From the NCBI RefSeq assembly GCF_048403405.1, contig NZ_CP183129.1: a stretch of 64,000 nucleotides of DNA; one strand, 5' to 3'. Within the stretch, counting starts at the first letter, position 1, and the number at the start of each line of letters is the position of its first letter. This document shows positions 16,629-33,470 of the stretch, piece after piece. The DNA comes from Escherichia coli. GTDB lineage: Bacteria > Pseudomonadota > Gammaproteobacteria > Enterobacterales > Enterobacteriaceae. The notes beneath the pieces are model-generated. The model was not told where the DNA came from. It saw only the letters and a program-made list of their open reading frames with translations, and ran no database searches. Both the position numbers and the translations under genes were made by a program.

Positions 16629-16630
16629 AT

Positions 16631-17778: not shown

Positions 17779-17800
17779 GGTCACTCCCTTTGTGACACCT

Positions 17801-17880
17801 ATAAAAAAGGCGCTTCCCCATGCCGAGTAGCGCCTTTTTAATCAAGCATTTAGCTAACCTGAATTAGTTCATGCCGTATT
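17801..17880. repeat. attL: 80-bp direct repeat (partner 33086-33165) with a duplicated fis 3' end and terminator
   Basis: Identical base-for-base to 33086-33165. It contains the reverse complement of the last 17 nt of fis (TTAGTTCATGCCGTATT) and the fis terminator hairpin. Confidence 0.9.
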
Positions 17881-18007
17881 ATCAAAACCTATGTTTCTTA
17901 CAGTTTGTCATGGTTCGTTAGTGTTTATATAACTTATTGAATAAAATGATTAATGTTGTTTCTTTAGTTTACCTTTGTTCATTTCTGTTCATAGGGTAAT
18001 ATTAAAG

Positions 18008-18029
18008 TGTGCAGTCAGTGGTGCAGTCA
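18008..18029 (+). repeat. 22-nt repeat TGTGCAGTCAGTGGTGCAGTCA (candidate integrase arm-type site; partner 33059-33080)
   Basis: An exact second copy in the same orientation lies just inside the other island end. It is internally a tandem GTGCAGTCA(G) duplication. Confidence 0.55.
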
Positions 18030-18055
18030 GTTTTCAATATGAATTAAGGTTTTCT

Positions 18056-19279
18056 ATGGCTGGAGGAACGAACAAATTAAGCGATACATCGTTGCGTAAG
18101 ATGCTGGGGAGGGAAATCGATAGAGATAGATTTTATGCTGACGGTGATGGATTGAGTATCAAGGTGTCAAAAATTGGCGTTCTTACTTGGTATTTCTCTT
18201 TCCGGATTGGTGGGCGTGAATCGTATTCACAGCGTGTTAAGCTTGGAAACTACCCGGATCTTTCTCTGAAAGCTGCGCGCGAGAAACGTGAACAGTGTCG
18301 AGCATGGCTTGCTGAAGGTAAAAATCCAAAGCATCGGTTAAATGTGGCAATACATGAAACACTCAAACCAGTGACGGTAAAAGAGGCTCTGGATTACTGG
18401 ATCAGAGAATACGCCGTTTACAAGCGCACGAATGTTGATAAACACATTGAGCAACTGAGGAAGCATATTTTCCCCTATATAGGTGATTATCCGTTATCAA
18501 TGTGCGAAACCCGGCATTGGCTGGAGTGTTTCGCTAGAGTAAGGAATGACGCTCCAGTGGCAGCTGGTTATTTGCTGCAGATGTGTAAGCAGGCTCTGAA
18601 GTTTTGCCGCGTACATCGTTATGCGGTTAGCAATGCTCTGGATGACCTGACTATCGATGATGTTGGTAGAAAACAGAATAAGCGCGATAGGGAACACAGC
18701 AGTCAAGAGTTAGCAGATATTTGGCAGGAATGTTCAGGTAAGAAATTTAAACCATACTATTCATCGTTGTTGCGTCTATTGGTGGTGTTTGGATGTCGAA
18801 CCCAGGAGCTTCGGTTGTCACGTATTACAGAGTGGGATTTAAAGGATTGGATCTGGACAGTGCCTAAAGAACACAGCAAAGGCGGAGAGAAGATATTGCG
18901 CCCTATTCCAGTGGTAATACGCCCATTCATCCAACAGCTTATAGAGCAACACAAAAACTCAGGTCTTTTGTTGGGTGAAATAAAGAAACCAGAAGCTGTC
19001 AGCCAATGGGGGAGGATGATATATAAGCGTCTGGGGCATATTGAATCGTGGACACTTCACGACCTGCGCAGGACGTTTGCTACCACACTAAATAACATGG
19101 GGGTTGCACCACATGTTGTTGAACAGCTTCTCGGTCACACATTAGGTGGTGTAATGGCCATATACAATCGTAGCCAGTACTTACCAGAAAAACTAGACGC
19201 TCTAAATAAATGGATGGAACGGCTTGAGGTTATTTCTGGTCAGTATTCAAATGTAAAAATATTGAAGGTAGCGAAATGA
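18056..19279 (+). CDS. int: P4-family tyrosine integrase
   Basis: N-terminal P4-int-type arm-binding region (LSDTSLRKM...DGDGLSIKVSK.G..TWYFSFR) and C-terminal catalytic residues (HDLRRTFAT...LLGH...AIYNRSQY). The start is set at MAGGTNK, which has an AAGG SD. Confidence 0.93.
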   Translation: MAGGTNKLSDTSLRKMLGREIDRDRFYADGDGLSIKVSKIGVLTWYFSFRIGGRESYSQRVKLGNYPDLSLKAAREKREQCRAWLAEGKNPKHRLNVAIHETLKPVTVKEALDYWIREYAVYKRTNVDKHIEQLRKHIFPYIGDYPLSMCETRHWLECFARVRNDAPVAAGYLLQMCKQALKFCRVHRYAVSNALDDLTIDDVGRKQNKRDREHSSQELADIWQECSGKKFKPYYSSLLRLLVVFGCRTQELRLSRITEWDLKDWIWTVPKEHSKGGEKILRPIPVVIRPFIQQLIEQHKNSGLLLGEIKKPEAVSQWGRMIYKRLGHIESWTLHDLRRTFATTLNNMGVAPHVVEQLLGHTLGGVMAIYNRSQYLPEKLDALNKWMERLEVISGQYSNVKILKVAK

Positions 19280-20013
19280 AAAAGATAAGCATCCCTGAGC
19301 GTATATATTATCCATTGCCTGAAGCAGCAAAGAAGCTGGGATGTACGCTTAATGATATATATCATTTTGCTGCTATAGGTGCTTTGAATATTTCTGTTTA
19401 TTTTCCAAACTGTCATCCATGTAAATCGCTAGTTATACCAAAATCATTAGTTGAAAATATTGATGTTGATTCAGGTGGGATGTTGCAAGGGGATCGCTGG
19501 GTAATTACAGGGATGAAGCCTGTTGGTAGCGATTTTGAATGGGTAAATTATTTTGGTGTGGCTTCTTATCTTGCAAAGAATTTTTGCGGTTTCTTCTATC
19601 TAAATCGGGAAAGTTTTTCTGAACTTGAATTTATTGGCAATGATGCAAGGATAGTATCATCTTTTTTTTCAACTCGTCCTGAATCAGAAAACTGGGAATG
19701 TCAAATTATGAGTGATGGGGCTATTGAGATCGACAGAAGGTTTTTATGTGTAATGGCTAAGGATTTGGAGCATATCAAAGATGTTGGAACCATGCCTGGA
19801 AGAAAAATGGGAGAATCGCCAAAAACTCTTGCGAAGAAAGCTGAGTTGATCCCTGCATTAATCAAACTAATTCCAGAAATGGATGATATAGATATTGGAA
19901 CTGCTCCAGTTGCTAAAGTGATCGCTGTTTTAGAGGCTGCGGCAGCGATGAAAGGGGTGTTTCTTCCCGCAACAGATAAGAATACGTGGGCTAAATACTT
20001 AGGGCGAACGTGA
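19276..20013 (+). CDS. hypothetical protein with an N-terminal AlpA/MerR-like HTH, translationally coupled to int
   Basis: 245 aa. Its ATG overlaps the int stop (ATGA). The N-terminus YYPLPEAAKKLGCTLNDIYHFAAIG resembles an excisionase-type HTH. The C-terminal ~190 aa are not recognised, and the gene is AT-rich. Confidence 0.6.
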   Translation: MKKISIPERIYYPLPEAAKKLGCTLNDIYHFAAIGALNISVYFPNCHPCKSLVIPKSLVENIDVDSGGMLQGDRWVITGMKPVGSDFEWVNYFGVASYLAKNFCGFFYLNRESFSELEFIGNDARIVSSFFSTRPESENWECQIMSDGAIEIDRRFLCVMAKDLEHIKDVGTMPGRKMGESPKTLAKKAELIPALIKLIPEMDDIDIGTAPVAKVIAVLEAAAAMKGVFLPATDKNTWAKYLGRT

Positions 20014-20040
20014 TATCACATATAAAATATGTGATATCAC
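20010..20040. promoter_or_regulatory. nested perfect palindrome (14-bp arms, 3-bp spacer) upstream of alpA; candidate operator or hairpin
   Basis: GTGATATCACATAT aaa ATATGTGATATCAC. Each arm contains the self-palindrome GTGATATCAC. Confidence 0.5.
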
Positions 20041-20102
20041 CTAAATATTCTAAGCATATTATCAATATGCTCTCGAACGATAATAAACGAGGGCATATCC
20101 AT

Positions 20103-20324
20103 ATGAGCAAAGTTAAATCATCGCAAGACCAATTTGATCGCATCATTCGTGAGGAGGAATGCCGACGCCTTACCGGTATTTGCCGAACGACGCGTTATAT
20201 GATGGAAAGGAAAGGGGTGTTTCCAGCCCGTCGTCAGTTGGGGGCTCGTTCTGTCGGTTGGTTGCTGTCTGAGGTTAATGATTGGCTTGAACGTCAACCC
20301 AAAGCACAACTGAAATCGGCGTAA
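20103..20324 (+). CDS. alpA: AlpA-family transcriptional activator / excisionase
   Basis: 73 aa from the internal Met. RIIREEECRRLTGICRTTRYMMERKGVFPARRQLGARSVGWLLSEVNDWL matches the AlpA (HTH_17) pattern. Confidence 0.85.
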   Translation: MSKVKSSQDQFDRIIREEECRRLTGICRTTRYMMERKGVFPARRQLGARSVGWLLSEVNDWLERQPKAQLKSA

Positions 20325-20349
20325 GGTGAGTTATGGTATATAAAACAAA

Positions 20350-20369
20350 GGCGACCGGGGGCGGTCGCC
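20350..20369 (-). terminator. rho-independent terminator for the leftward RHH operon (convergent with alpA)
   Basis: GGCGACCG gggg CGGTCGCC. On the minus strand it is followed by TTTGTTTTAT. Confidence 0.65.
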
Positions 20370-20436
20370 AATGGATACACACTAAACTTGAACGCATCAC
20401 CAACAATGCCACATTTGCGGCTGGTGGGCAATGTGA

Positions 20437-20616
20437 TCAGTCAGATTTGGTTCGTTCCAAGGTTTGCAACGAGAGCTTTTTCCTGTGCTCTTTAAGGAAT
20501 TTCTCAAGAGCAAACGAACAAGGTGCGAATCTTTCTGATTCATGTTCATGCGCTATATTTTTGCGTCGTCTCTTACGAGTTGGTGATGGTGTTTTGGTTG
20601 ATTCTGTGTCGCTCAT
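20437..20616 (-). CDS. possible small basic protein (59 aa), not in the ORF track
   Basis: Minus-strand ATG at 20616 preceded by AGGA. It translates to MSDTESTKTPSPTRKRRRKNIAHEHESERFAPCSFALEKFLKEHRKKLSLQTLERTKSD and sits between the RHH gene and the terminator. Confidence 0.35.
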   Translation of the reverse strand: MSDTESTKTPSPTRKRRRKNIAHEHESERFAPCSFALEKFLKEHRKKLSLQTLERTKSD

Positions 20617-20673
20617 GGTGCTGTCCTGTAAAGCAATGCGCCTGCGTTCCTCAAACTATGGCGCTGATAGTGG

Positions 20674-20979
20674 CTATTCCTGCCCTTTGACCTTGCGTCG
20701 CTGGAGTTCTTCACGCGCGACGGTGACGAGTTGCCCGATCTCCTCGGCGGCTTTGACTCCGATTTTTTCAACCTGCGCTAGGGCATCGAGCGAAGAAACC
20801 AGGAGGTTTTCTCCGCTTCCTTCTGCCTGGCGGCGGGCGATTTCACCGCGCATGGCGGTTACTATGAATCCGGCGTTGCTTTCACCGTCCAGTTTTACGG
20901 ATTCCATGCCTTCAATAACATCATGCGGGATCCGAGCTGTCAGTGATTGTGATTTTGCGTTTTTTGAACCTGTAGCCAT
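20674..20979 (-). CDS. ribbon-helix-helix (Arc/CopG-like) DNA-binding protein, candidate island repressor
   Basis: 101 aa from MATGSKNAKSQSLTARIPHDVIEGMESVKL..., with the SD GAGAGGA 6 nt upstream. The pattern is an N-terminal beta-strand and two helices typical of RHH, with a coiled C-terminus. Confidence 0.6.
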   Translation of the reverse strand: MATGSKNAKSQSLTARIPHDVIEGMESVKLDGESNAGFIVTAMRGEIARRQAEGSGENLLVSSLDALAQVEKIGVKAAEEIGQLVTVAREELQRRKVKGQE

Positions 20980-21000
20980 CTGTAATCCTCTCAATGAAAG

Positions 21001-21077
21001 TGTAAGACAATATACACATAAAAAGTCTTACATAAAAGCATTGACATGTAAGCCACCTATAAATAAAGTTACTTACA
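21001..21077. promoter_or_regulatory. divergent control region with four TGTAAG half-sites in two inverted pairs
   Basis: TGTAAGAC (21001) / GTCTTACA (21025) and TGTAAGCC (21047) / ACTTACA (21071). TTGACA at 21041 is embedded among them. Confidence 0.5.
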
Positions 21078-21175
21078 CCTTGTTAATGCAAGGTGCAGAA
21101 ACGACGAAACCCCGCACTGTAGGAGCAGTAACGGGGCTTCTAACCACCAACGATAGCAAGATTATCGAGGCAGCT

Positions 21176-21379
21176 ATGAGAAATCATACCATACACCCGC
21201 AAGGGCGGGACTCGTACAACCTGAATAAATACATCTGGCGTTTTATCGCCCTGAGCACCGCACAACCGCGCGTGATTCACATCGTGGCCACCAGCGAACA
21301 GGAAGCACGCCAGCAATCCCCGGCTGGCTGCGTGATGGTATTCGCCGCCCGCATTCGTCAGGGGGGGTGCCATGCCTGA
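21176..21379 (+). CDS. Icd-like (host cell division inhibitor-like) small protein
   Basis: 67 aa: MRNHTIHPQGRDSYNLNKYIWRFIALSTAQPRVIHIVATSEQEARQQSPAGCVMVFAARIRQGG. The '..F.A.....P.V...VA.SE.EAR....G....FAARI' pattern matches proteins I recall being annotated Icd-like in P4-like elements. A GAGG SD is present. Confidence 0.6.
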   Translation: MRNHTIHPQGRDSYNLNKYIWRFIALSTAQPRVIHIVATSEQEARQQSPAGCVMVFAARIRQGGCHA

Positions 21380-21692
21380 TATGTCAAATTACCAGTACCT
21401 GATTAATCCGCATTTTAACTGTGAGCATGATATTGCTAAAAAGGTTTATTCCGCTGCGGATGGGGCTACTGACAATATATCAATGGCTGTTGCGTCAATT
21501 GGTAGCCTGATGTGGCATGCGTCAGAAAATGAGGAATATGACGCAAAGGCCATGCGCATTGATATGGGTAATATCGGTTTGTTACTGGCAATGCTTGGAC
21601 ATTTTGATATTTCGTTACGGTGCACCATTGAAAATGCCACAGATGCATTAAATGCCATAAAGAAAGCGAATACTGATTCAAATCGGGGATAA
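21372..21692 (+). CDS. hypothetical protein
   Basis: 106-aa ORF whose start overlaps the preceding stop (operon-like). No recognisable motif. Confidence 0.5.
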   Translation: MPDMSNYQYLINPHFNCEHDIAKKVYSAADGATDNISMAVASIGSLMWHASENEEYDAKAMRIDMGNIGLLLAMLGHFDISLRCTIENATDALNAIKKANTDSNRG

Positions 21693-21698
21693 ATAATC

Positions 21699-21998
21699 AT
21701 GAGAACATATTTATCTGGCTTGACTGCCAGCGGTTATGCACACCCTAAAATTATCCCCGGCGCTATTTATCTGGATAAGAACGGTAACAGAGTAACGGTA
21801 AAAGAACTGATGTTTGACCGTGTTTATTTTATTCGTGATGGCTATTCATTTCATAGTTCGCTGAACGTGGAGATCTTTATTTGCAGATTCCGGCGGGAAA
21901 TCCCGCTTTCCAGAAATAACCATGTGTCATGTATGGATGTTGATAAAAAACTACAGGAACTGAAAAACATGATTGCCGCGTGGAGAGAGCAGAAATGA
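21699..21998 (+). CDS. hypothetical protein
   Basis: 99-aa ORF whose stop overlaps the primase start (ATGA). No confident family assignment. Confidence 0.5.
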   Translation: MRTYLSGLTASGYAHPKIIPGAIYLDKNGNRVTVKELMFDRVYFIRDGYSFHSSLNVEIFICRFRREIPLSRNNHVSCMDVDKKLQELKNMIAAWREQK

Positions 21999-23812
21999 AA
22001 AAAGCGCCAAATTTAAAACACCAGCCGCGTGACAAAATGACGGAAGTCATCATTTTTGCGGGTAGTGATGCGTGGGCACATGCGAAGCAGTGGCAGGAAC
22101 AGGACGGGCGACTGGCAGGCGATAACGTGCCACCTGTCTGGCTTGGAGAGCAACAACTTGCCGAACTGGACAACCTGCAAATTGTACCGGACGGACGCTA
22201 TCGCGTGCGTCTCTATCAGGCGGGGTTATTGCGTCCGGGGCTTGTTAATACCATCGGGCAGAAACTGGCAGCGGCAGGTGTCAGGGATGCTGATTATTAC
22301 CCTGAAGGAATGCACAGCCAGAAACGGGAGAACTGGCGCGAATATCTGGAACGTGAGCGGGGAGAGCTGGCGGAAAAGAAAAAGGTAGTTGAACTGCCTG
22401 TAAAGAAAAAAGAGCGGGTAAAAGACGATAACGCTTCATCACTGGCGCTTAACCAGATGGGAGCAAGTCAACGCGGCGAAGTTCTCCTGGCACATTATGG
22501 CGGTGAACTGGCGATTCATGCCGACTCTGACACTGTTCACCATTACAACGGCGTTGTATGGGAGCCAGTACAGGATAAAGAATTACAGCGAGCTATGGCG
22601 CAGATTTTCATTGATGCGGAGATCAGCTATTCGCAGAACGCCATTAAATCGGCGGTCGATACCATGAAGTTAAGTTTGCCTGTAATGGGGAATACAGCCC
22701 GTAACCTGATTGGATTCAGTAACGGGGTATTTGATACCAGAACAGGTAATTTTCGGGAGCATAACAAAAACGACTGGTTGTTAATTGCCAGTGAATTACC
22801 TTTCAGCCCACCAGCAGAGGGGGAAACGCTGGCAACACATGCGCCGAATTTCTGGAAGTGGTTACGCCGTTCGGTGGCTGAGAATGACCGCAAGGCGGAT
22901 CGCGTACTGGCGGCATTATTCATGGTGCTGGCGAACCGGTACGACTGGCAGTTATTCATTGAGGTAACAGGTCCAGGGGGAAGTGGTAAAAGCGTGATGG
23001 CGGAGATTTGCACCATGCTGGCGGGTAAGGCTAATACAGTATCAGCAAGCATGAAGGCGCTGGAAGATGCAAGGGAACGTGCGTTAGTGGTTGGCTTTTC
23101 TCTGATTATCATGCCGGATATGACCCGCTACGCTGGTGATGGGGCAGGGATTAAGGCCATTACAGGCGGTGACAAGGTGGCAATTGACCCGAAACACAAA
23201 GCTCCCTACTCAACGCGTATTCCGGCAGTAGTGCTGGCGGTTAACAATAACGCCATGTCATTCAGTGACCGCAGCGGGGGGATCTCACGTCGTCGGGTGA
23301 TATTCAATTTTTCGGAAGTTGTACCGGAGAACGAACGTGATCCGATGCTGGCGGAAAAAATAGAAGGTGAGCTGGCGGTAGTGATTCGCCATCTGCTTAC
23401 ACGGTTTGCTAACCAGGACGAAGCCAGACGCCTGTTATATGAGCAGCAGAAATCTGAAGAAGCACTGGCGATAAAGCGAGAGGGGGATTCGCTGGTGGAC
23501 TTCTGCGGCTATCTCATGGCGTCGGTAATGTGTGATGGCCTGTTAGTGGGTAATGCTGAAATTGTGCCATTCAGCCCGCGCAGATATCTCTATCATGCCT
23601 ATCTGGCTTATATGAGGGCACATGGGTTTGGTAAACCTGTAACACTGACGCGCTTCGGTAAAGATATGCCGGGGGCAATGGCGGAATATGGCAGGGAGTA
23701 TATGAAACGGAAAACGAAGCACGGTTTGCGTTCAAACGTGACACTGACGGAGGAATCAGAAGACTGGATGCCATCATGTGTATCGGTCACTAATGACGAT
23801 AGCAAAAATTAA
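21995..23812 (+). CDS. P4-alpha-type primase / SF3 (D5-like) replicative helicase (pri-rep)
   Basis: Walker A VTGPGGSGKS and the downstream ITGGDKVAIDPKHKAPY...RRRVIFNF pattern of the 'phage/plasmid primase, P4 family, C-terminal domain'. The iteron origin lies immediately 3'. Confidence 0.88.
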   Translation: MKKAPNLKHQPRDKMTEVIIFAGSDAWAHAKQWQEQDGRLAGDNVPPVWLGEQQLAELDNLQIVPDGRYRVRLYQAGLLRPGLVNTIGQKLAAAGVRDADYYPEGMHSQKRENWREYLERERGELAEKKKVVELPVKKKERVKDDNASSLALNQMGASQRGEVLLAHYGGELAIHADSDTVHHYNGVVWEPVQDKELQRAMAQIFIDAEISYSQNAIKSAVDTMKLSLPVMGNTARNLIGFSNGVFDTRTGNFREHNKNDWLLIASELPFSPPAEGETLATHAPNFWKWLRRSVAENDRKADRVLAALFMVLANRYDWQLFIEVTGPGGSGKSVMAEICTMLAGKANTVSASMKALEDARERALVVGFSLIIMPDMTRYAGDGAGIKAITGGDKVAIDPKHKAPYSTRIPAVVLAVNNNAMSFSDRSGGISRRRVIFNFSEVVPENERDPMLAEKIEGELAVVIRHLLTRFANQDEARRLLYEQQKSEEALAIKREGDSLVDFCGYLMASVMCDGLLVGNAEIVPFSPRRYLYHAYLAYMRAHGFGKPVTLTRFGKDMPGAMAEYGREYMKRKTKHGLRSNVTLTEESEDWMPSCVSVTNDDSKN

Positions 23813-23824
23813 ACTTATGGAATA

Positions 23825-24049
23825 ACTGTTCACCACTGTTCACCCTGTCATAAATATCTTTTATATCAGTATATTATAGGGTTAACAGTTATTTATGAAC
23901 TGTTCACCAAACTATTCACTGTTCACCTTTTTGATTGTTTATTGAGCTTCAAGGGTGAACAGTGGTGAACAGTTGGTGAATAGTTTTTGTGAAACTGTTC
24001 ACCCCTTAACCTTATGAATTAAAAGATAAAATATCAAAAGGTGAACAGG
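23825..24049. repeat. replication-origin iterons: ACTGTTCACC decamers in both orientations around AT-rich spacers
   Basis: Direct copies at 23825, 23835, 23899, 23918 and 23994. Inverted copies (GGTGAACAGT) at 23954, 23964 and 24040 (9/10 match). Degenerate copies at 23911 and 23975. Confidence 0.75.
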
Positions 24050-24196
24050 TGAAGGGTTAAAACGCAAAAATTTTAATTTACTGCTGTGAGATAAAGACTA
24101 TGACAGTAAAGCACACAAAAACACGCGCTTGATTTGACCGAATACTGGTTAAAAATGACTACAAATTAGATAAATTAGATAAAATAGGAAGAAATA

Positions 24197-24457
24197 ATGC
24201 CGATTCTGACGCATGAAATAAACAATTATTTTGATCAATTCGGACTTCATGATATTGCTTCAATGCCTACCACTCAGTACCGTCAGGCCCTTGCAAATGG
24301 TGGTTTACTGTGGATTGATCATCATGATTTTATTCGTAGCACGCTATCAGATGAAATCCTTGCAACAAATCAAGAGCAGGTTAATGTTTTGATTGAGCAT
24401 TTGCAGGTTTTAAGGAAAAAAATGCCACTACCTCCTAATTGGATGAGTGAGAAATGA
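24197..24457 (+). CDS. hypothetical protein (86 aa)
   Basis: AGGAAG SD before the ATG. AT-rich, no recognisable motif. Ends at the shared hairpin terminator. Confidence 0.5.
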   Translation: MPILTHEINNYFDQFGLHDIASMPTTQYRQALANGGLLWIDHHDFIRSTLSDEILATNQEQVNVLIEHLQVLRKKMPLPPNWMSEK

Positions 24458-24460
24458 ATT

Positions 24461-24489
24461 ATATGGCCTGGCTCTTTGCCAGGCCATAT
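24461..24489. terminator. bidirectional hairpin terminator between convergent genes
   Basis: ATATGGCCTGG ctctttg CCAGGCCATAT (11-bp stem) between the stops at 24457 (+) and 24492 (-). Confidence 0.7.
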
Positions 24490-24491
24490 AC

Positions 24492-25001
24492 TCAAAGCAT
24501 TGTTAACAAGGCGGACGCACCAGCACCAACGAGACTGGCTACCGTACTATTATTTAGTAAATCCTTAAGCAAATTTTTTGCCTGAGGATCTTGTGATTGA
24601 GAAACTTTTTCAACAAGTTCAGTTATGCTGAGATTTACAATAAGATTGTTATGCTCACCGAGTTGAACCTGTGTACCGGATATGTTACCAATGTTAAATG
24701 TATTTTGGCTAGATTGTTTTGGTTTATGTTCATTAGCAGTCAGATTCTCGACTTTTAATGTAAGCATGTGAGGGTGATTAGTACCAACATTGAGTGTACC
24801 TCCTGGTAAAAATGACATATCAATTACTTTTAATATTATTTCCCCCTTCCCTAGTTTTTGAGTGATTTCATCTCCAATATTAATATCTGGTTCTTCAGTA
24901 TAAGGGATTAGCACTTTTTTTTCAGCTGAGTTTCTTTTCCCCTTGTATTCAACTCCTGCGATTGTGAATTTTTCTGGATATGCCATGACGTTAAGATCCA
25001 T
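24492..25001 (-). CDS. hypothetical 169-aa protein: beta-rich N-domain, RHIM-like 'FNIGNISGTQVQLGEHNN' module, hydrophobic Gly/Ala-rich C-tail (candidate effector)
   Basis: Strong SD GAGGAG 7 nt upstream, 29 nt after the upstream gene's stop. The C-terminus is STVASLVGAGASALLTML. The motif translation was checked by hand against the DNA at about 24636-24707. Confidence 0.7.
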   Translation of the reverse strand: MDLNVMAYPEKFTIAGVEYKGKRNSAEKKVLIPYTEEPDINIGDEITQKLGKGEIILKVIDMSFLPGGTLNVGTNHPHMLTLKVENLTANEHKPKQSSQNTFNIGNISGTQVQLGEHNNLIVNLSITELVEKVSQSQDPQAKNLLKDLLNNSTVASLVGAGASALLTML

Positions 25002-25030
25002 TATGTTGCTCCTCGTGATCGCTTTTGCGT

Positions 25031-25807
25031 TTAACTAGTAGATTTGAAAGTGTATTTTGTCTGTGTGTTAAGGTTTGATATTAGAGCTTCATAGTTTTCT
25101 TTACTCAGTAAGTTTTTTGAGTAGGCCTTCTTAAGAAGGTTTTTTGAGAGAGTAATAATTTCTTTTTCACCAGTTGATGCAATTTTTGAGAAGAACTCAG
25201 AGAGCTCTTGTATATTAATATTGTTATTTGTACCAAGTTGTACGTATTGGCTATTTACAGTAGCTATGTTGAATATGTTTTGTTTTGGATGCGTTTTTTT
25301 TAGCTTTTCAATTTCAGCATGTTCTATGATTTTTTGAGAGATACTTTCAATATAACCACTAACGTCTTTTTTTTCTGGGAAGGAAAACCCATCACCTCTT
25401 AATATTTTATCTGTTTCGGCCATTTCATAGTAAAGCCTGCGAATCATCACAAGTAATAGTAATTTAGCCTCCTCGATTGACTCCTCTATTGAGAATTGAC
25501 ATTCAATTGCTAACGCGGAGGTCTGCTCTAAAACAATTTCTGAGTTATTTTCAATGTAAGGATTGATAAAACCATTCCAAAAAATTTGAACGGGAGTACC
25601 TTTAAATGCCAAACCTTGATAGCATATTTCTGTTCCATCATATGCAGTAACTTTCATGGGGGGGCCTGCATTGAAAAATCGCCATCTATGAATCAGTTTG
25701 GTTAATCTTTCGTCAATCTCCCGAACTAATTTATAAGTCCTTTTGAACAATGGGGATGGTCGCATCCCAGGAACAGCAAGAATTTCTTTTGTCACTTGAA
25801 TCTCCAT
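25031..25807 (-). CDS. hypothetical 258-aa protein carrying the same 'FNIATVNSQYVQLGTNNN' module (candidate sensor/partner)
   Basis: Long ORF in an AT-rich segment and first gene of a two-gene operon. The motif was checked by hand against the DNA at about 25211-25282. No known catalytic motifs recognised. Confidence 0.65.
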   Translation of the reverse strand: MEIQVTKEILAVPGMRPSPLFKRTYKLVREIDERLTKLIHRWRFFNAGPPMKVTAYDGTEICYQGLAFKGTPVQIFWNGFINPYIENNSEIVLEQTSALAIECQFSIEESIEEAKLLLLVMIRRLYYEMAETDKILRGDGFSFPEKKDVSGYIESISQKIIEHAEIEKLKKTHPKQNIFNIATVNSQYVQLGTNNNINIQELSEFFSKIASTGEKEIITLSKNLLKKAYSKNLLSKENYEALISNLNTQTKYTFKSTS

Positions 25808-26054
25808 AGTTTATCAGCATTTTTGTAAATTATTTGTGTGTTAACATTCAAGACTGTTCGTAACAAAAATACCTTATTTACATCAATTTTTTGATCCATA
25901 TCTTAAATAGTGGCACTCAGACGTGAGCCGCCACTGTTGCCGTCCGATCCCCTGCGCGATGCCGGGTTGATCTGCGAGATGCCGAGAGTGTCGGGCGGCG
26001 CTCCCTCCGTGTTGGTTTCACGTCCTGAATCTTAACCAATACGAGAAAACCTTC

Positions 26055-27224
26055 ATGAAGAAATTAATCGAGCTCCGCCAGCAAAAAAACGCCCTGAAAA
26101 ACCAGATGCGATCCCTGCTGGAAAAAGCCGACAGTGAAAACCGCAGCCTGAACGATGACGAGGGCAAACAGTTTGATGAACTGCGTGCAAAAGCTGATTC
26201 CCTCGATACAGACATTTCCCGCCTCGAGTCTGTGGCTGATGAAGAACGCAGCAAGCCAGGAACGGGCATCCAGAAAGTATCATCTGATGAATTGCGTAAC
26301 TACATCGTAACCGGAGATGTGCGATCTCTGTCCACCAGCACTGACAGCGGCAGGGATGGCGGATATACCGTAATTCCTGAGCTTGATCGCGAAGTCATGC
26401 GCCAGCTACAGGATGACAGTGTTATGCGCGTGATCGCGACCGTGAAGACTGCAAAATCAAATGAGTTTCAGAAACTGGTTTCCACTGGCGGCGCAACTGT
26501 AGGACGAGGCACAGAAGGCAGCGCACGCAGTGAAACCAACACCCCGAAAATTGAACGCGTAACCATCAAGCTGAACCCGATCTACGCCTACCCGAAAACC
26601 ACGCAGGAAATCCTAGATTTTTCAGAGGTGGATATTCTGGGCTGGTTATCCTCCGAAATTGCCGACACGTTCGCCAGCACCGAAGAGGATGATTTTGTTA
26701 ATGGCAACGGTAACGGCAAGCCGAAAGGCTTCATGGCTTACACCCGTGCGGCGACCAGTGACAAAACCCGCGCTTTTGGCACCATTGAAAAAATGGTAGC
26801 GGCAAGTGGAACCGCCATTACAGCGGACGAACTGATCGACATTCTCTACAAGCTGAAAGCGAAATACCGCAAAAATGCCGTCTGGGTGATGAACTCGGGC
26901 ACGGCAGGGACACTACAGAAGCTGAAAAATGAGAACGGCGATTATATCTGGCGCGACAGCCTTAAAGAAGGTGCGCCGGATATGTTGCTTGGTCGTCCTG
27001 TTTACTGCCTGGAGTCCATGCCGGACATCGGCGCAGGAAAAGCACCGCTAGCGGTTGGCGATTTCAGTCGTGGTTATTTCATCGTTGATCATGTAACAGG
27101 GATTCGCACCCGACCGGACAACATTACTGAACCCGGATTCTACAAGGTCCACACGGATAAATATCTGGGCGGTGGTGTGGTGGATTCAAACGCCATCAAA
27201 ATTCTGGAAATGAAAGCTGGCTAG
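26055..27224 (+). CDS. HK97-family major capsid protein
   Basis: 389 aa with an N-terminal coiled-coil delta/scaffold domain (MKKLIELRQQKNALKNQMRSLLEKAD...) followed by an HK97-fold-type sequence. Confidence 0.9.
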   Translation: MKKLIELRQQKNALKNQMRSLLEKADSENRSLNDDEGKQFDELRAKADSLDTDISRLESVADEERSKPGTGIQKVSSDELRNYIVTGDVRSLSTSTDSGRDGGYTVIPELDREVMRQLQDDSVMRVIATVKTAKSNEFQKLVSTGGATVGRGTEGSARSETNTPKIERVTIKLNPIYAYPKTTQEILDFSEVDILGWLSSEIADTFASTEEDDFVNGNGNGKPKGFMAYTRAATSDKTRAFGTIEKMVAASGTAITADELIDILYKLKAKYRKNAVWVMNSGTAGTLQKLKNENGDYIWRDSLKEGAPDMLLGRPVYCLESMPDIGAGKAPLAVGDFSRGYFIVDHVTGIRTRPDNITEPGFYKVHTDKYLGGGVVDSNAIKILEMKAG

Positions 27225-27237
27225 TCATGAGTAAGGA

Positions 27238-27258
27238 GGAGGCTGCGGCCTCCTTTTT
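27238..27258 (+). terminator. hairpin + T-run just after the capsid gene (candidate partial terminator/attenuator)
   Basis: GGAGGC tgcg GCCTCC TTTTT, located between the capsid stop and the protease start. Confidence 0.45.
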
Positions 27259-27278
27259 CAGCTTTATGGAGTACACCG

Positions 27279-27839
27279 ATGAAAAACACCGATTTTGAAA
27301 TCCGCACATCTGAACTGACCGCCAGCAATAAAAAGCTGGTGGGGTATGCCGTTCGCTGGAACAGCCTTTCAGAAATTATCTGGGACGAATTCCGCGAACA
27401 GTTCACGCCGGGGGCTTTTGCTGACTATCTGGCGGCGGGTAATGATGTGCGCTGCCTGTATGAGCATGACTATACCCAACTGCTGGGGCGCACCAAATCC
27501 GGCACTCTGGTACTGACTGAGGATAACACCGGGTTACGTTTTGAACTGACACCGCCGGATACCCAGCTTGGAAAAGATGTGCTTACGCTGGTGGAGCGTG
27601 GCGACATTACAGGAATGAGCTTTGGTTTTCGCGCATTATGCGAGGAGTGGAGTATCGCGCAAAAACCGTATTTGCGTACCGTAACCGCCGCTGAACTCCG
27701 TGAAATCACAATAACGTCGATGCCTGCTTATCCAGAATCTGGCGTGGAGATTGCCCACCGTTCGTTGTTTGCACAGCACCCTGAATTATGCCCGACAGGA
27801 AATAATCGTCATCGCTGGTCTGAGCTGGCGGGGTTGTGA
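27279..27839 (+). CDS. HK97-family prohead maturation protease
   Basis: 186 aa. The pattern GYAVRWN...FTPGAF...VRCLYEHD...LLGRT..GTL.L.ED..GL.F......T..G.D.L.L..RGD..GMSFGF matches the S78/U35 prohead protease family. Confidence 0.88.
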   Translation: MKNTDFEIRTSELTASNKKLVGYAVRWNSLSEIIWDEFREQFTPGAFADYLAAGNDVRCLYEHDYTQLLGRTKSGTLVLTEDNTGLRFELTPPDTQLGKDVLTLVERGDITGMSFGFRALCEEWSIAQKPYLRTVTAAELREITITSMPAYPESGVEIAHRSLFAQHPELCPTGNNRHRWSELAGL

Positions 27840-27840
27840 T

Positions 27841-29055
27841 ATGTGGTGGCCTTTTAGTCGTAAAAAAAGCGAGCAGCGTAACCTGTCCATTGATGATTTT
27901 CTGGCGCTGTCCGGCGTACCGAATACCGGATCCGGAGAATATGTTTCTGCCGGGACGGCTGAATCATTGCCTGCAGTGATGAATGCGGTTTCTGTCATCG
28001 CTGAGGCGGTGGCCACGATGCCGTGTTATCTGTATCTGGTACGTAATGACAAGGGCAGGGAGGCGCGGGAATGGCTGGACAGTCACCCGGTAGATATTCT
28101 GCTGAATGAGCAGCCTAATTCGTGCCAGACACCTTACCAGTTTAAACGCACAATGATGCGTCACTGCCTGCTGAACGGTAACGCCTATGCGGTTATTGAG
28201 TGGGGGCAGGACGGGCAGCCAAAATCACTTCATCCTTATGCGCCGGGGTGTGTTGTACCGGAACGCACAGGCGCACACAAATACCGCTATACCATCACCG
28301 AACCCTATACAGGAACGGTGCGCACGTATTTACAGGAAGAAGTTCTGCATCTCCGCTATGCCTCGGATGATGGCTTTCTGGGGCGCTCCCCCGTCACGAT
28401 TTGCCGTGAGGCACTTGGGCTTGGCCTTGCTCAACAGCGCCACGGAGCCAGCATTATGAAAGATGGCATGATGGCGGCAGGGATTATCACGTCAGGCGAA
28501 TGGCTGGACGGCGTGAAAGGTAAACAGGCATTGGATGCTCTGGAACGCTACAAGGGGGCGAAAAATGCCGGAAAAACGCCAATCCTTGAAGGGGGCATGG
28601 ATTACAGGCAACTGGGAATGAGTAACCAGGATGCGGAATGGCTGGCCTCCCGTCGCTTCTCCATTGAAGACATCGCCCGCATGTTCAACGTATCGCCTAT
28701 TTTTCTGCAGGAATACAGCAACAGCACCTACAGCAATTTCAGCGAGGCAAGCCGCGCGTTTCTGACCATGACAATGCGCCCGTGGCTGGCGAACTTCGAA
28801 CAGCAAATCAAGGCCGCTTTGCTGGTGGCTTCTCCCGTACCTGGTACCCGTTATCTGGTTGAGTTTGATTCAGCCGATTTATTACGCGCCACACCCACCG
28901 AACGTTATGCCACGTATGAGAAAGGGATTAAGAACGGGATCATGAATCCGAACGAAGCCCGTGAGCGTGAGGGTATGCCGCCGCGTGAAGGTGGTGATGA
29001 GTTCAGCCAGGCATGGAAACAGACTGTGGAAATTAAAGGGAGAAAAGATGAGTGA
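27841..29055 (+). CDS. HK97-family portal protein
   Basis: 404 aa from MWWPFSRKK, with the start abutting the protease stop. Portal-type sequence (NPNEARE..G.PP..GGD C-terminal region). Confidence 0.88.
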   Translation: MWWPFSRKKSEQRNLSIDDFLALSGVPNTGSGEYVSAGTAESLPAVMNAVSVIAEAVATMPCYLYLVRNDKGREAREWLDSHPVDILLNEQPNSCQTPYQFKRTMMRHCLLNGNAYAVIEWGQDGQPKSLHPYAPGCVVPERTGAHKYRYTITEPYTGTVRTYLQEEVLHLRYASDDGFLGRSPVTICREALGLGLAQQRHGASIMKDGMMAAGIITSGEWLDGVKGKQALDALERYKGAKNAGKTPILEGGMDYRQLGMSNQDAEWLASRRFSIEDIARMFNVSPIFLQEYSNSTYSNFSEASRAFLTMTMRPWLANFEQQIKAALLVASPVPGTRYLVEFDSADLLRATPTERYATYEKGIKNGIMNPNEAREREGMPPREGGDEFSQAWKQTVEIKGRKDE

Positions 29056-29350
29056 AGCCAGAATTACACCTGATGAAGTCAGGGCACATCTTCGACTTGA
29101 TGATGATTTATCCGGTGAAGGCGAACTTCTGAAAATGTATACCGATGCGGCGCTGGAAGCCTGCCAGAAGCATATCGGGAAACGTTTTGAAGACGGGCTG
29201 GAATTTACCCCGGCAATGCGTGTTGGTTGCCTGATGTACATCGCTTTCCTGTACGAGAACCGGGAAGCGGTTTCACCAGTGGAGCACTCGGAACTGCCTA
29301 TGGCTATTTCTGCGCTCTGGTCAGTTTATCGTGACGTAGGGGTGTACTGA
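29048..29350 (+). CDS. gp6-like head-tail connector (adaptor) protein
   Basis: 100 aa: MSEARITPDEVRAHLRLDDD...LLKMYTDAALEACQKHIG, a typical gp6-like/DNA-packaging-connector N-terminus. It overlaps the portal stop. Confidence 0.75.
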   Translation: MSEARITPDEVRAHLRLDDDLSGEGELLKMYTDAALEACQKHIGKRFEDGLEFTPAMRVGCLMYIAFLYENREAVSPVEHSELPMAISALWSVYRDVGVY

Positions 29351-29790
29351 TGCCGTGGCAACCATTAAGGCGATGCACTGAGCCTGGCTGTAATAAGCGC
29401 GTGAAGTCCGGCAAGTGTGAAGAGCACAGGCGGGCTGCATGGCGTGCAGAGGATGCCAGACGGGGACACCGCCGCGCGCGCGGGTATTCCCGACAGTGGG
29501 ACAAATACCGCGCCCTGTACCTGAGCAAAAACCCGTTATGCGTGCGTTGTCTGGCTAAGGGGATTTATACGCCAGCTCTTGTGGTGGATCACATCATTCC
29601 CATCAATGGCGGCGGTGATGTTCTCTTCTGGCCTGAGTGGAATCACCAGGCATTGTGCCAGACGTGCCACAACCGTAAGACGACACGGGAAGATCCAGCC
29701 ACGAAAGCAAACCGTAAAGCGGGCATGTATCACGAGCAGGAAGAACGGGCGGCACACCGTAACGACTGGATGTATGGCGATGATGACTGA
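29350..29790 (+). CDS. HNH endonuclease (packaging-associated)
   Basis: 146 aa with the HNH core VVDHIIPINGGGD...NHQALCQTCHNRKT and Cys-rich zinc motifs. It lies directly upstream of terS/terL, as in HK97-like cos phages. Confidence 0.88.
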   Translation: MPWQPLRRCTEPGCNKRVKSGKCEEHRRAAWRAEDARRGHRRARGYSRQWDKYRALYLSKNPLCVRCLAKGIYTPALVVDHIIPINGGGDVLFWPEWNHQALCQTCHNRKTTREDPATKANRKAGMYHEQEERAAHRNDWMYGDDD

Positions 29791-30078
29791 ACAGGAGCAA
29801 ACCAGGCTGATACGTGGACTGATAAGGCAGCGTGACACATGGAAGACACAGGAGACAGAGCACAAAGCCAACAGGACAGGGCGCACAAAACTCACCACAG
29901 CGAAGCGATTAACCGACCGTGACCGCGAGGTCATGGAATGTTTTCGCAATCGCTGGTGAGGCCGTCAGAGGGGGTGGGGGTGGTTTTCAGGACGAAACCG
30001 TCCCTGCCGGACACCGACCGCCCCCTCAAATTTTTGTGCACGGTAATTTTTTTGAAAATAATTGGGCGAAAAAAGAAC

Positions 30079-30435
30079 ATGGCAAGACCACCAAAAGCCC
30101 CCGCTTACCTGGATGAAATCGCGGTCAGGCAGTGGAAGGAAAAATCGCGCCAGCTTTCCGGGCGGGAAGACCTTACCCCCGCCGACTGGAGCAATCTGGA
30201 ACTGTATTGTGTTAACTACTCCATATACCGCAAAGCCGTCGAAGACCTTGCGACGCGCGGGTTCAGCATTGTTAACAGTCAGGGCAGCGAGAGCAGAAAC
30301 CCCGCACTGAGCGCAAAGGCTGACGCAGAAAGAATAATGATCAAAATGGCTTCTTTGCTGGGTTTTGACCCGGTAAGCCGTCGCAGAAATCCACCGGAAA
30401 CAGAGGAAGAGGACGAACTTGACCGCCTGGCATGA
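30079..30435 (+). CDS. terminase small subunit (P27 family)
   Basis: 118 aa from MARPPKAPAYLDEIAVRQWKE..., typical of the P27-family TerS N-terminus. The longer ORF-track start was rejected. Confidence 0.8.
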   Translation: MARPPKAPAYLDEIAVRQWKEKSRQLSGREDLTPADWSNLELYCVNYSIYRKAVEDLATRGFSIVNSQGSESRNPALSAKADAERIMIKMASLLGFDPVSRRRNPPETEEEDELDRLA

Positions 30436-32080
30436 GTACGCAGAAGGCGTAAAAAACGGCAAAATTACGGCCTGTAAACGACTGAAACAGGCCGTTAAAC
30501 GGTATTTTTCTGACCTTGAAAACTCCCTTTACACGTTCGATCCGGAGGTCGTGGAGCGGTTTATTGCCTTTTCCCGGGTGTGTCCGCACGTAAAAGGCGC
30601 AATGCGCGGTAGTCCCATTGAACTGGAGCCGTGGCAGCAGTTCGCCTTTGCCTGCATCCTGGGCTTTAAGGTTAAGGCCACCGGACGGCGCAAATACACC
30701 AGCGCATTCATTGAAGTACCGCGAAAAAATGCCAAATCCACGGTCGCCGCTATCCTGGCTAACTGGTTTCTGGTTATGGAAAACGGGCAGCAGGATATTT
30801 ACACCGCCGCCGTGAGTCGTGATCAGGCGCGGATCGTGTTTGATGATGCGCGTCAGATGTGCCTTTTATCCCGACCGTTACGAAAGCGGGTAAATATTCA
30901 GGCACACAAGGTGATACACCCGAAAACTAACAGCCTGTTAAAGCCACTGGCAGCAAAAGCGGCAACCATTGAAGGTACAAATCCGAGTCTTGCCATTGTG
31001 GATGAATATCACCTGCACCCTGACAACGGGGTTTATTCCGCACTTGAGCTGGGGATGGGGGCGCGTCCGGAGGGGCTGTTATTTGCCATCACCACATCGG
31101 GGAGCAACGTTGTTTCAGCCTGTAAACAACACTATGACTATTGCTGTCAGATACTGGATGGTGAAGAGATGAACGAATCCATGTTCGTTCTGATTTACGA
31201 GCTGGATGATGAAAGCGAGGTTGACGATCCGGCCATGTGGATAAAGGCGAATCCAAATATCGATGTTTCCGTCGATCGTGAAAAACTGGCCTCAACCATC
31301 CAGAAAGCGCGGGGTATTCCGTCGCAGTGGGTGGAAATGCTCACCAAGCGATTCAATATCTGGTGTCAGGGGGCTACGCCGTGGATGGGTAACGGTGCAT
31401 GGGCGGAGTGCGCCGGAACGTTCGCGGAGGCGGATTTATACGGGCAGGAGTGCTACGCGGGACTGGACTTATCATCAACCAGCGATATTTCCAGCGTGTG
31501 CTATGCCTTTCCGGTCGGTAAAAAGATTATGCTGGTTTCCCGTCACTATCTGCCGGAATTTCAGCTACAGAACCCCGCCAATAAAAACCGCGCCATCTAT
31601 CGCCAGTGGGTAAAGGCGGGCTGGATACGCACAACACCGGGTGACTGCATTGATTATGACCGTATCCGTGATGACATCATGGCGGATGCAGAGAATTTCA
31701 ATATCAGGCTGGTGGGCTTCGATACATGGAACGCCACGCACCTGAGGACGCAGCTACAGGGGGCAGGATTTGAGGTGGAGCCGTTCCCGCAAACATACCT
31801 TCGTTTCAGTCCGGCGGCGAAATCGTTCGAAGTTTTTGTTAACCGGAAGGTGATTGTGCATCGTGGTGATCCGGTGCTGGCCTGGTCAATGAGTAATGTT
31901 GTGATGCAGAGTGACGCGAACGCCAATATCAAGCCGAACAAGAAAAAATCATCCAACAAGATAGACCCGAGCGTTGCGGCGCTGATGGCGTTTGGCACAT
32001 TCCAGGCAGAGCATGAGGAATTTGCATTTGATATGAGCGACAGCCACAAAGAGCGACTTGCGGCGTTTGATGGGGTATGA
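30419..32080 (+). CDS. terminase large subunit
   Basis: 553 aa with a TTG start overlapping the terS end. It has an ATPase Walker-A-like VPRKNAKST and Walker B AIVDEYH, followed by a nuclease domain. Confidence 0.9.
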   Translation: MTAWHEYAEGVKNGKITACKRLKQAVKRYFSDLENSLYTFDPEVVERFIAFSRVCPHVKGAMRGSPIELEPWQQFAFACILGFKVKATGRRKYTSAFIEVPRKNAKSTVAAILANWFLVMENGQQDIYTAAVSRDQARIVFDDARQMCLLSRPLRKRVNIQAHKVIHPKTNSLLKPLAAKAATIEGTNPSLAIVDEYHLHPDNGVYSALELGMGARPEGLLFAITTSGSNVVSACKQHYDYCCQILDGEEMNESMFVLIYELDDESEVDDPAMWIKANPNIDVSVDREKLASTIQKARGIPSQWVEMLTKRFNIWCQGATPWMGNGAWAECAGTFAEADLYGQECYAGLDLSSTSDISSVCYAFPVGKKIMLVSRHYLPEFQLQNPANKNRAIYRQWVKAGWIRTTPGDCIDYDRIRDDIMADAENFNIRLVGFDTWNATHLRTQLQGAGFEVEPFPQTYLRFSPAAKSFEVFVNRKVIVHRGDPVLAWSMSNVVMQSDANANIKPNKKKSSNKIDPSVAALMAFGTFQAEHEEFAFDMSDSHKERLAAFDGV

Positions 32081-32367
32081 CGAGAATGACTGAAACTGAT
32101 CTACTAAAAATAATTCGCCGCATTACCGGAATCAGTCAGCAGCCTGACGAACAGGCTACACAGCCGGACAGCGTGATAGCCGAAAATTACGCGCGTGTGG
32201 TGGCTGAGGTGATGCGCCGTGACGGTATTGAGCTTAACGGCGTGGATATGCGCAACATACGAACCAGAGTCCTTGAGTTGCTGGCATACCGTCGCCGTTC
32301 TCAACAACGGAGGGAGAGCGCGAAAAATACTTACCAGTGGAAGAAGCCGGAACGACTGCGGCGGTAA
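32077..32367 (+). CDS. hypothetical protein (96 aa) coupled to terL
   Basis: Its start overlaps the terL stop (ATGA). Basic C-terminus. No family recognised. Confidence 0.45.
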   Translation: MTRMTETDLLKIIRRITGISQQPDEQATQPDSVIAENYARVVAEVMRRDGIELNGVDMRNIRTRVLELLAYRRRSQQRRESAKNTYQWKKPERLRR

Positions 32368-32432
32368 CTTGCTGATATTCCCGATAACGCAAAATTGCGT
32401 TGGCTGGCATAGTGCAAATTTGCACGATGACC
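32364..32432 (+). repeat. unit 1 of a paralogous ~70-nt element (TGATATTCCCGA ... GTTGGCTGG ... perfect palindrome)
   Basis: Shares GTAACT, TGATATTCCCGA and GTTGGCTGG at identical 26-nt spacing with unit 2. Contains ACGCAAaaTTGCGT and the perfect 14-bp palindrome GTGCAAATTTGCAC (32412-32425). Confidence 0.6.
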
Positions 32433-32667
32433 TAACCCATTGACTTTTCTTCAATCCTCAATTTTGAGGAGGCCGGAAGATAAAAAACTGTCAAAACTTG
32501 TCATGCAAAACGTTACCAGCACGGCTATTGATTTATTCGGCCCCTGCAACTGCTCCCAGAATGGTGGGGATCTGAAATCCGACCCTGAAAAAGTGCGCAA
32601 AAGTGGTACGCAAAAATTAGCGTCCAGCCACAGCCACCAGCTAGACAGAACGCCCAGAGCATTGTCA

Positions 32668-32740
32668 GTAACTGGTTGATATTCCCGACAGCCCCAAAAT
32701 GGGTTGGCTGGTGGGTGAGTTGCAGATCTGCAACTCGACC
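32668..32740 (+). repeat. unit 2 of the paralogous element
   Basis: Has the same conserved blocks as unit 1 and contains the perfect 16-bp palindrome GTTGCAGATCTGCAAC (32719-32734). Confidence 0.6.
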
Positions 32741-33058
32741 ATGAAACTACGGAAACTACCCGTAGTTTGGGTAGTAAGAGTAACACCCAGATTCTGGGGC
32801 TTACTCGCGATACCCAAATAAAGGGTATCGGTGGACGAAATATTATTTCTCATATGTGAGCACCGAAGGCGGAATTCCGCCCTCGGTTATCTATCATGCA
32901 CAGGGAGAAGCAGGGCAAAACTCTTGCCATGGCGTCTTCCGGACCGCTCACCACACCGTTTTTATCCCCATTAAAAATGAAAAAACACATCACTGCGGAG
33001 ACATAACCACTGGCAGGTATCTATTCTATTTATTATTGTTCGGTTTCGTTCGTGCTTA

Positions 33059-33080
33059 TGTGCAGTCAGTGGTGCAGTCA
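33059..33080 (+). repeat. second copy of the 22-nt TGTGCAGTCAGTGGTGCAGTCA repeat
   Basis: Identical to 18008-18029. It lies 5 nt inside the right-hand 80-bp att repeat. Confidence 0.55.
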
Positions 33081-33085
33081 TTTTA

Positions 33086-33165
33086 ATAAAAAAGGCGCTT
33101 CCCCATGCCGAGTAGCGCCTTTTTAATCAAGCATTTAGCTAACCTGAATTAGTTCATGCCGTATT
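33086..33165. repeat. attR: 80-bp direct repeat overlapping the 3' end of the intact fis gene and its terminator
   Basis: Identical to 17801-17880. Positions 33149-33165 are the last five sense codons plus the stop codon of fis. Confidence 0.9.
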
Positions 33166-33445
33166 TTTTCAATTTTTTACGCAGCGTACCACGGTTGATG
33201 CCCATCATCAGCGCAGCACGGGTCTGGTTACCACGGGTGTATTGCATCACCATGTCCAACAGGGGCTGTTCTACTTCAGCCAGTACCAGCTCATAGAGGT
33301 CATTCACATCCTGACCGTTCAGTTGAGCAAAATAGTTCTTCAGTGCCTGTTTAACCGAGTCACGCAGGGGTTTTTGGGTTACCTGATCCTGAGAGTTAAC
33401 GGTAGAAACGGTCAGTACGTCAGAATTTACGCGTTGTTCGAACAT
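33149..33445 (-). CDS. fis: nucleoid-associated global regulator Fis
   Basis: 98 aa, [98 protein letters not shown], matches my recollection of E. coli Fis. Confidence 0.98.
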
Positions 33446-33470
33446 AGTTCTGTCAGCTCTTTATTTCTGT

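Follow-up and report, generated by a model that had tools for sequence, protein, structure and literature searches.

The DNA analyzed here, referred to as the window, is a stretch of 64,000 nucleotides (64 kb) from Escherichia coli (RefSeq assembly GCF_048403405.1, contig NZ_CP183129.1), in which a segment at positions 17801-33165 lies between yhdJ and fis, the gene of the global regulator Fis. We conclude with high confidence that this segment represents a capsid-forming phage-inducible chromosomal island (cf-PICI) in its integrated state, 15,285 bp in length when one copy of its attachment (att) sequence is counted, and that it was placed at the end of fis by its own P4-type tyrosine integrase. 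A first-pass annotation of the same DNA had correctly described the structure of an insertion and had missed the identity of the insert, a cf-PICI satellite by gene content and order. The chromosomal flanks and the att blocks at the two junctions, attL and attR, are as follows.

16894-17778, minus strand: yhdJ, adenine DNA methyltransferase, left chromosomal flank (RefSeq annotation of the identical locus L001, at an offset of 600; K-12 comparison)
17801-17880, no strand: attL identity block, comprising the chromosomal fis terminator, a spacer and 17 nt of the fis 3' end (repeat comparison; the same 80-mer is in Supplementary File 3 of Mageeney et al. 2023, NAR Genom Bioinform, PMC10111431)
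17866-17878, fis sense: deduced crossover region TACGGCATGAACT in attL (attL/attR comparisons)
33086-33165, no strand: attR identity block, comprising element-borne copies of the fis terminator and spacer (33086-33148) followed by the final 17 nt of the intact fis (repeat, folding and locus comparisons)
33149-33445, minus strand: fis, intact, 98 amino acids (MFEQ...KKYGMN), right chromosomal flank (open reading frame (ORF) list, RefSeq annotation)

The 80-mers at 17801-17880 and 33086-33165, which had been reported as identical, are exactly so (100%), the match breaking off precisely at each border; they form a single pair, and no further copy, whole or partial, was found elsewhere in the window. 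A perfect repeat of 80 nt cannot have arisen by chance in 64 kb. The right 80-mer includes the final 17 nt of fis, and the left one has the same 17 nt without the remainder of the gene. These nucleotides had been described as five sense codons plus the stop; the length and the stop were right, whereas the complete codons number four (Y-G-M-N), preceded by 2 nt of a Lys codon. The other 63 nt of the 80-mer hold the fis terminator and a spacer. When folded in the fis sense, the terminator forms a hairpin of -26.4 kcal/mol followed by U6; for the plus strand the values are -21 kcal/mol and a U5 tail, and the hairpin is predicted to be a strong bidirectional terminator. The hairpin was revealed by folding, having been overlooked by a consensus terminator scan because its loop is above the limit of the scan. 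The annotated ATG of yhdJ is at 17778, which leaves a gap of 22 nt to the left 80-mer; the 23 nt given previously hold from start to start and not for the intervening nucleotides.

In K-12 MG1655, yhdJ adjoins fis across a spacer of 85 bp, and the junction carries one 80-mer, identical to that of the window. This bears out both the earlier statement that fis directly neighbours yhdJ in K-12 and the proposal that the 15.2 kb between the two genes are an insertion. A synthetic empty site, made by joining 17581-17880 to 33166-33465, was tested on complete E. coli genomes; it was contiguous in 5309 of 5425 and interrupted in approximately 116 (2%). A different empty junction, or an ancestral status of the region, had been named beforehand as what would speak against an insertion, and with K-12 and these 5309 genomes checked the insertion stands. 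Matches to the left flank end precisely at 17880 in almost every genome; continuation into the integrase gene of the window was seen in only 23. The element is present at ≥99% identity in 18 genomes, and the hosts of the carriers include human, dog, pig, poultry and seawater. The stretches of the carriers that comprise the yhdJ-side junction and its flank are 97.8-100% identical to the window, the island being present in different chromosomal backgrounds, and some genomes with flanks 100% identical to those of the window have an empty site. The distribution indicates horizontal gain or precise loss of the island, from which we infer that it is mobile.

Strain TUM1226 carries an island 100% identical to the one in the window. 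Strain 4621 (L001) has the same island with identical junctions and, in addition, an IS1 between acrS and yhdU (L001 15235-15932) that is absent from the window (~16628-16631); the window accordingly represents another sublineage.

Between the att blocks the element has the following genes and non-coding features.

18056-19279, plus strand: P4-type tyrosine integrase (int), 407 amino acids (Arm-DNA-bind_3, Phage_int_M and Phage_integrase; Pfam, RefSeq annotation)
19276-20013, plus strand: ORF of 245 amino acids overlapping the int stop, without family match, a variable accessory slot (ORF list, profile searches)
20103-20324, plus strand: AlpA-family regulator/excisionase (PF05930, E=3e-14; annotation)
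20674-20979, minus strand: YlcI/YnfO family protein (annotation, PHROGs/Pfam scan)
21176-21379, plus strand: Icd-like protein (annotation, profile scan)
21372-21998, plus strand: two small ORFs, for a hypothetical protein and a DUF4222 protein (annotation, profile scans)
21995-23812, plus strand: primase/replicase (D5_N, DUF5906, Pox_D5; Pfam, annotation)
23811-24050, no strand: probable replication origin, with ten ACTGTTCACC iterons that flank an AT-rich stretch, both orientations being represented (repeat search)
24197-24457, plus strand: ORF of 86 amino acids, phrog_1957 (annotation, PHROGs)
24492-25795, minus strand: low-GC (0.34-0.36) accessory cargo of two genes, for 169 and 254 amino acids (composition, annotation, profile searches)
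26055-27224, plus strand: HK97-type major capsid protein (PF05065, E=5e-71)
27279-27839, plus strand: prohead serine protease, S78 (PF04586, E=7e-46)
27841-29055, plus strand: portal protein (PF04860, E=2e-92; annotation)
29048-29350, plus strand: head-tail connector/adaptor (annotation, profile scans)
29350-29790, plus strand: HNH endonuclease, packaging accessory (Pfam)
29774-29959: coding sequence of 61 amino acids, annotated as hypothetical (annotation only)
30079-30435, plus strand: small terminase TerS, P27 family / Terminase_4 (Pfam, annotation)
30419-32080, plus strand: large terminase TerL (Pfam)
32086-32367, plus strand: ORF of 93 amino acids, phrog_1561 (annotation, PHROGs)
32368-33058, no strand: right end, non-coding and structured, containing a pair of paralogous double-hairpin units (folding, repeat search)

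The gene content and order agree with what is expected of a cf-PICI. The integrase gene is terminal, beside attL at the yhdJ end and distal to the intact fis, as the first-pass annotation had placed it, and the att repeats that flank the element are perfect. AlpA and a primase/replicase are both present, and the ten ACTGTTCACC iterons lie directly 3' of the primase/replicase stop codon, where they probably constitute the origin of replication of the satellite. Capsid, prohead protease and portal genes of the element's own are followed, after the morphogenesis genes, by HNH, TerS and TerL in this order. Tail, holin and lysis genes have no place in a cf-PICI, and no match to a tail or lysis/holin family was obtained among the 20 of 23 annotated coding sequences between the att sites that were scanned with Pfam and/or PHROGs. 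The composition of the element differs from that of its flanks. As in the fis-targeting group of PICIs, the att block contains the fis terminus TACGGCATGAACT(AA), and fis is intact on one side. A P4-like satellite would have sid, psu, delta and epsilon and no capsid of its own; these four genes were not found among the scanned genes of the element, which has its own capsid, portal and terminase. The complete tail and lysis modules of a temperate prophage are likewise not seen there. Megablast against deposited phages returned only three weak partial matches, the best of them to a 16.5-kb 'induced prophage'. In nucleotides the late module is ~82% identical to that of cf-PICIs from O55:H7 and further strains, and with some cf-PICIs at different sites the identity reaches 98%; this range of 82-98% at other E. 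coli loci fits a modular, mosaic family.

One caveat attaches to the assignment. Profile scans detected one head-tail adaptor/connector gene (29048-29350) and no separate head-closure gene such as that of a cf-PICI at another fis site (L005, see below), whereas both the cf-PICI prototype and L005 have two connector genes. By a hand count the element therefore has 10 of the 11 SatelliteFinder core components. Nothing contradicts the cf-PICI explanation.

The fis end was found to be occupied by different or diverged elements at L003, L004, L005 and L006. The attL and attR of these four occupied sites were compared.

L004: cf-PICI with an integrase gene 77% identical in nucleotides; identity block of 28 bp; the spacer has T in attR and C in attL
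L003 and L006: elements of 9.5-9.75 kb with a VapE-type primase; identity block of 17 bp; each brings an entirely different terminator
L005: cf-PICI of 16.1 kb; identity block of 13 bp (AGTTCATGCCGTA); fis gains a TGA stop and a foreign terminator

As the blocks of the other occupants are 28, 17 and 13 bp in length, strand exchange takes place within TACGGCATGAACT, and the predicted crossover must lie inside this sequence. The T in attR and C in attL of L004 indicate that the terminator in attR arrived with the element, and the terminator predicted to serve fis in the window at present is shown by these comparisons to be element-derived. The repeat is 80 bp in length, and not ~13-17 bp, because attP carries, adjoining the core, a 63-nt replica of the 3' untranslated region and terminator of E. 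coli fis. Regeneration of the fis 3' end and terminator by the element, as proposed in the first-pass annotation, is thus borne out, and in the relative at L005 the stop codon is supplied by the element as well. In the window the 3' untranslated region of fis has been restored base for base, and integration looks neutral for fis. The element is a clean textbook case of an attP that bears a replica of the 3' end of its target, and the comparison set shows a satellite providing the terminator of the gene of a global regulator and, in relatives, its stop codon too.

The smaller elements at L003 (10522-20017) and L006 (19490-29256) encode an integrase, a helix-turn-helix protein and a VapE-type primase, along with small ORFs and a protein of 760 amino acids annotated as 'tail tape measure', and bring their own terminator for fis. 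In L003 the accession of the Fis protein differs from the usual one.

Two further features near the ends of the element are candidates for sites bound by the integrase.

18009-18029, plus strand: P' arm doublet GTGCAGTCA-GTG-GTGCAGTCA, putative arm-type integrase binding site, with 128 nt between it and the identity block and 26 nt between it and the int ATG
33060-33080, plus strand: P arm doublet GTGCAGTCA-GTG-GTGCAGTCA, separated by 5 nt from the identity block that follows

Four copies of GTGCAGTCA occur in the window against 0.53 expected, all of them within these two co-oriented doublets, in which the spacing is 12 bp. The start positions of the doublets at the occupied sites, counted from the 12-nt core GTTCATGCCGTA, are given below.

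Window, L004 and a Buttiauxella fis island: doublet GTGCAGTCA, -92 / +131
L005: doublet TGTATAAACA, -91 / +131
L003: doublet GGTTGTCA, -79 / +142
L006: doublet GTGTAACT, -77 / +144

Across the window and L003-L006 the separation of the two doublets is constant, at about 233-235 bp. In Erwinia mallotivora and Enterobacter soli, too, the GTGCAGTCA doublet adjoins the fis terminator; a scan of genome contigs for the doubled motif yielded six loci, and four of them, from Buttiauxella, Erwinia and Enterobacter, proved to be att arms at fis. The remaining two, in a Bdellovibrio and an Acidiferrales metagenome-assembled genome, were discarded as unrelated tandem repeats. Integrases with the same doublet (L004, Buttiauxella) are 84-88% identical to that of the window in the arm domain (amino acids 1-95) and 80-85% in the remainder, whereas those with a different doublet (L005, L003, L006) have 38-53% identity in the arm domain and 58-67% in the remainder. 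The sequence of the doublet covaries with the arm-binding domain of the integrase, a pattern expected of arm-type sites, and the doublets are most likely such sites, bound by the N-terminal domain of the integrase. They yield a concrete prediction on the specificity of the integrase arm domain. Doubled arm motifs at fis PICIs are a small addition, better supported than the linkage to fis discussed in the following paragraph, and do not amount to a new kind of system.

A proposal compatible with the cf-PICI explanation is that integration at fis is adaptive. PICIs, cf-PICIs and the Vibrio satellites known as PICMIs would target the fis end, always rebuilding its terminator, because this position links recombination or late expression to the Fis/growth-phase circuit, either by transcription into the element or by Fis serving as a recombination cofactor in cis. 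It is in favor of this proposal that all three kinds of satellite target the fis end, and that excision of lambda has Fis among its known cofactors, as cited in PMC10803314. The geometry of the locus argues otherwise: fis, on the minus strand, converges with the late operon of the satellite, on the plus strand, upon the predicted strong bidirectional terminator in attR, so that read-through from fis would be antisense to terL and not sense to the recombination genes, and int and alpA are 13-15 kb off, at the far end and on the strand opposite to fis. All elements examined retain or replace the terminator at the fis end, which resembles insulation and not coupling, and as the fis 3' end is exactly restored here no change in fis output is expected. 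Since Fis acts in trans, the position of its gene is irrelevant to the supply of a cofactor; a single clade of integrases that recognises a highly conserved 13-bp sequence is the simpler explanation of why fis is used recurrently. We consider an adaptive linkage improbable, and the earlier suggestion that excision or expression of the element is coupled to fis transcription is unsupported, the convergent genes and the bidirectional terminator opposing simple read-through.

Another possibility is that the segment is a decayed, immobile prophage remnant in which no more than the head and packaging genes survive, and that the repeats are relics of an old phage integration. A deletion derivative could indeed look alike, as capsid, portal and terminase genes of phage type are present without tail or lysis genes. 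All genes of the element are, however, intact and in the conserved cf-PICI layout, and this layout recurs, with diverged sequence, in the elements that occupy the fis site of L004 and L005. Near-identical copies are found in different chromosomal backgrounds, both att copies are perfect, and no remnants of tail or lysis genes were seen at the borders of the island; moreover, the published survey (PMC10111431) was without a prophage at fis, and no deposited phage resembles the element. A remnant is thus very improbable. An ancestral region, lost from K-12 and the majority of other strains when the 80-bp repeats recombined, can practically be dismissed, for although such a direct repeat could support RecA-mediated deletion leaving one copy, ~98% of the 5425 genomes, in all lineages, are empty, the carriers are spread over different flank alleles, at least four unrelated or diverged elements use the same site with blocks of 13-28 bp, and the island has its own integrase, putative arm sites and a composition unlike that of its flanks.

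The cf-PICI in the window is one more copy of a catalogued element, whose attB and interpretation are already in the literature. Mageeney et al. (PMC10111431) listed 3565 fis-integrated islands across Proteobacteria, every one of them scored as a PICI, with a consensus block TACGGCATGAACTAA at the fis end that reaches into the terminator; no prophage was found to use the fis site. The excision of one of these islands, Kpn47.16.fis, within the consensus block was observed experimentally after mitomycin C. In Supplementary File 3 of that study, Eco10764.15.fis (RNSI01000006.1/144136-128852) is 15,285 bp long and has a block that is the exact reverse complement of the 80-mer of the window, and at least 71 entries start with the same extended block; 9-kb elements with a 17-bp block are listed as well. 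Eco10764.15.fis and Eco10847.15.fis are like the element of the window in host species, site, length (15,285 bp) and 80-bp att block. Nothing substantive sets the element apart from these entries. In the attPs of the fis PICIs of that survey the doubled motif of the helper-embedded PICIs (HE-PICIs), TGTATTGC, was reported absent, whereas the window shows analogous doublets of other sequence at fixed positions. The integrase of the window may fall in the clade related to the HE-PICI integrase 11capE, for which its matching domain architecture, and the length and att block that the element shares with catalogued entries, are indirect support. The HE-PICIs themselves have a probably related P4-type integrase and, in each attP arm, a co-oriented doubled motif with 12-bp spacing, some 80-90 bp from the crossover in one arm and 130-150 bp in the other; they differ by inserting into prophage late genes and by their motif, TGTATTGC, where the element of the window uses a chromosomal gene end and GTGCAGTCA.

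The element resembles the cf-PICI prototype EcCIEDL933 (bioRxiv 10.1101/2022.09.08.507074; PMC10085698) in its int-alpA-primase, capsid-protease-portal-connector and hnh-terS-terL modules, its size of ~15 kb and its lack of tail and lysis genes; this gene order is that described for proteobacterial cf-PICIs (Alqurainy et al., bioRxiv 10.1101/2022.09.08.507074; SatelliteFinder cfPICI model, PMC10085698). In contrast to EcCIEDL933 it has another integrase, attB and set of accessory genes and one detected connector gene. Vibrio PICMIs (PMC10803314) share integration at the fis end, 17-bp direct repeats and the int-alpA-primase core, but are ~6 kb in size, lack capsid and packaging genes, use virulent helper phages and occur in another bacterial family. 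With satellite P4 the element has in common a D5/alpha-like primase and an Icd-like gene, and with P4 and the tRNA-targeting P4-type integrases the combination of Arm-DNA-bind_3 with a catalytic domain and an attP whose replica of the target 3' end keeps the gene intact. It differs from these in its target, which is the end of a protein-coding gene and not a tRNA gene, and in having its own capsid and no sid, psu or delta. As a catalogued cf-PICI at a catalogued attachment site, the element is of slight importance beyond its correct annotation.

In the explanation that we favor, the P4-type integrase recombined the attP of the element with a chromosomal attB located in the last four codons and the stop of fis, with the crossover inside TACGGCATGAACT. 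Following integration, fis has an unchanged end and a terminator, supplied by the element, in attR, and its original terminator has come to lie in attL beside int. The remainder of the life cycle is modeled on characterised cf-PICIs. A helper phage would induce the alpA operon, AlpA and Int would excise the island, and the primase/replicase would copy it from the iteron origin. The island would then build its own small HK97-type capsids and package itself by means of HNH-TerS-TerL, the helper contributing nothing but tails. These later events, from induction and excision to the formation of capsids and the hijacking of tails, are what we infer by analogy.

Two accessory slots are apparent. The cargo pair at 24492-25795, on the minus strand, sits between the replication and capsid modules, and its 169- and 254-amino-acid proteins have a common C-terminal segment (phrog_5789). 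In L004 (DUF3775) and L005 the same slot is filled by unrelated genes, and 24492-25795 is therefore a variable accessory slot. Between int and alpA, L004 and L005 hold a DUF6387 protein unrelated to the 245-amino-acid ORF of the window, which makes this position a second variable slot. Searches with PADLOC, Pfam and PDB sequences gave no usable match for the two cargo ORFs or for the 245-amino-acid ORF; a match of BrxA to 32077-32367 (E=0.0096) was treated as noise. The cargo at 24492-25795 is a candidate defence locus.

The right end of the element (32368-33058) consists of ~690 nt of non-coding and strongly structured sequence (z = -5.9). An Rfam scan of 17000-34000 at E≤0.1 returned no matches, leaving the right end and the att region without a known RNA family. 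The end may serve as a packaging site or encode an RNA; together with the low-GC cargo it is a follow-up candidate for accessory functions of the satellite. Its two units, paralogues of ~75 nt each, have two palindromic hairpins apiece, which differ by compensatory changes, and parts of 32368-33058 are also found in classical PICIs elsewhere in E. coli.

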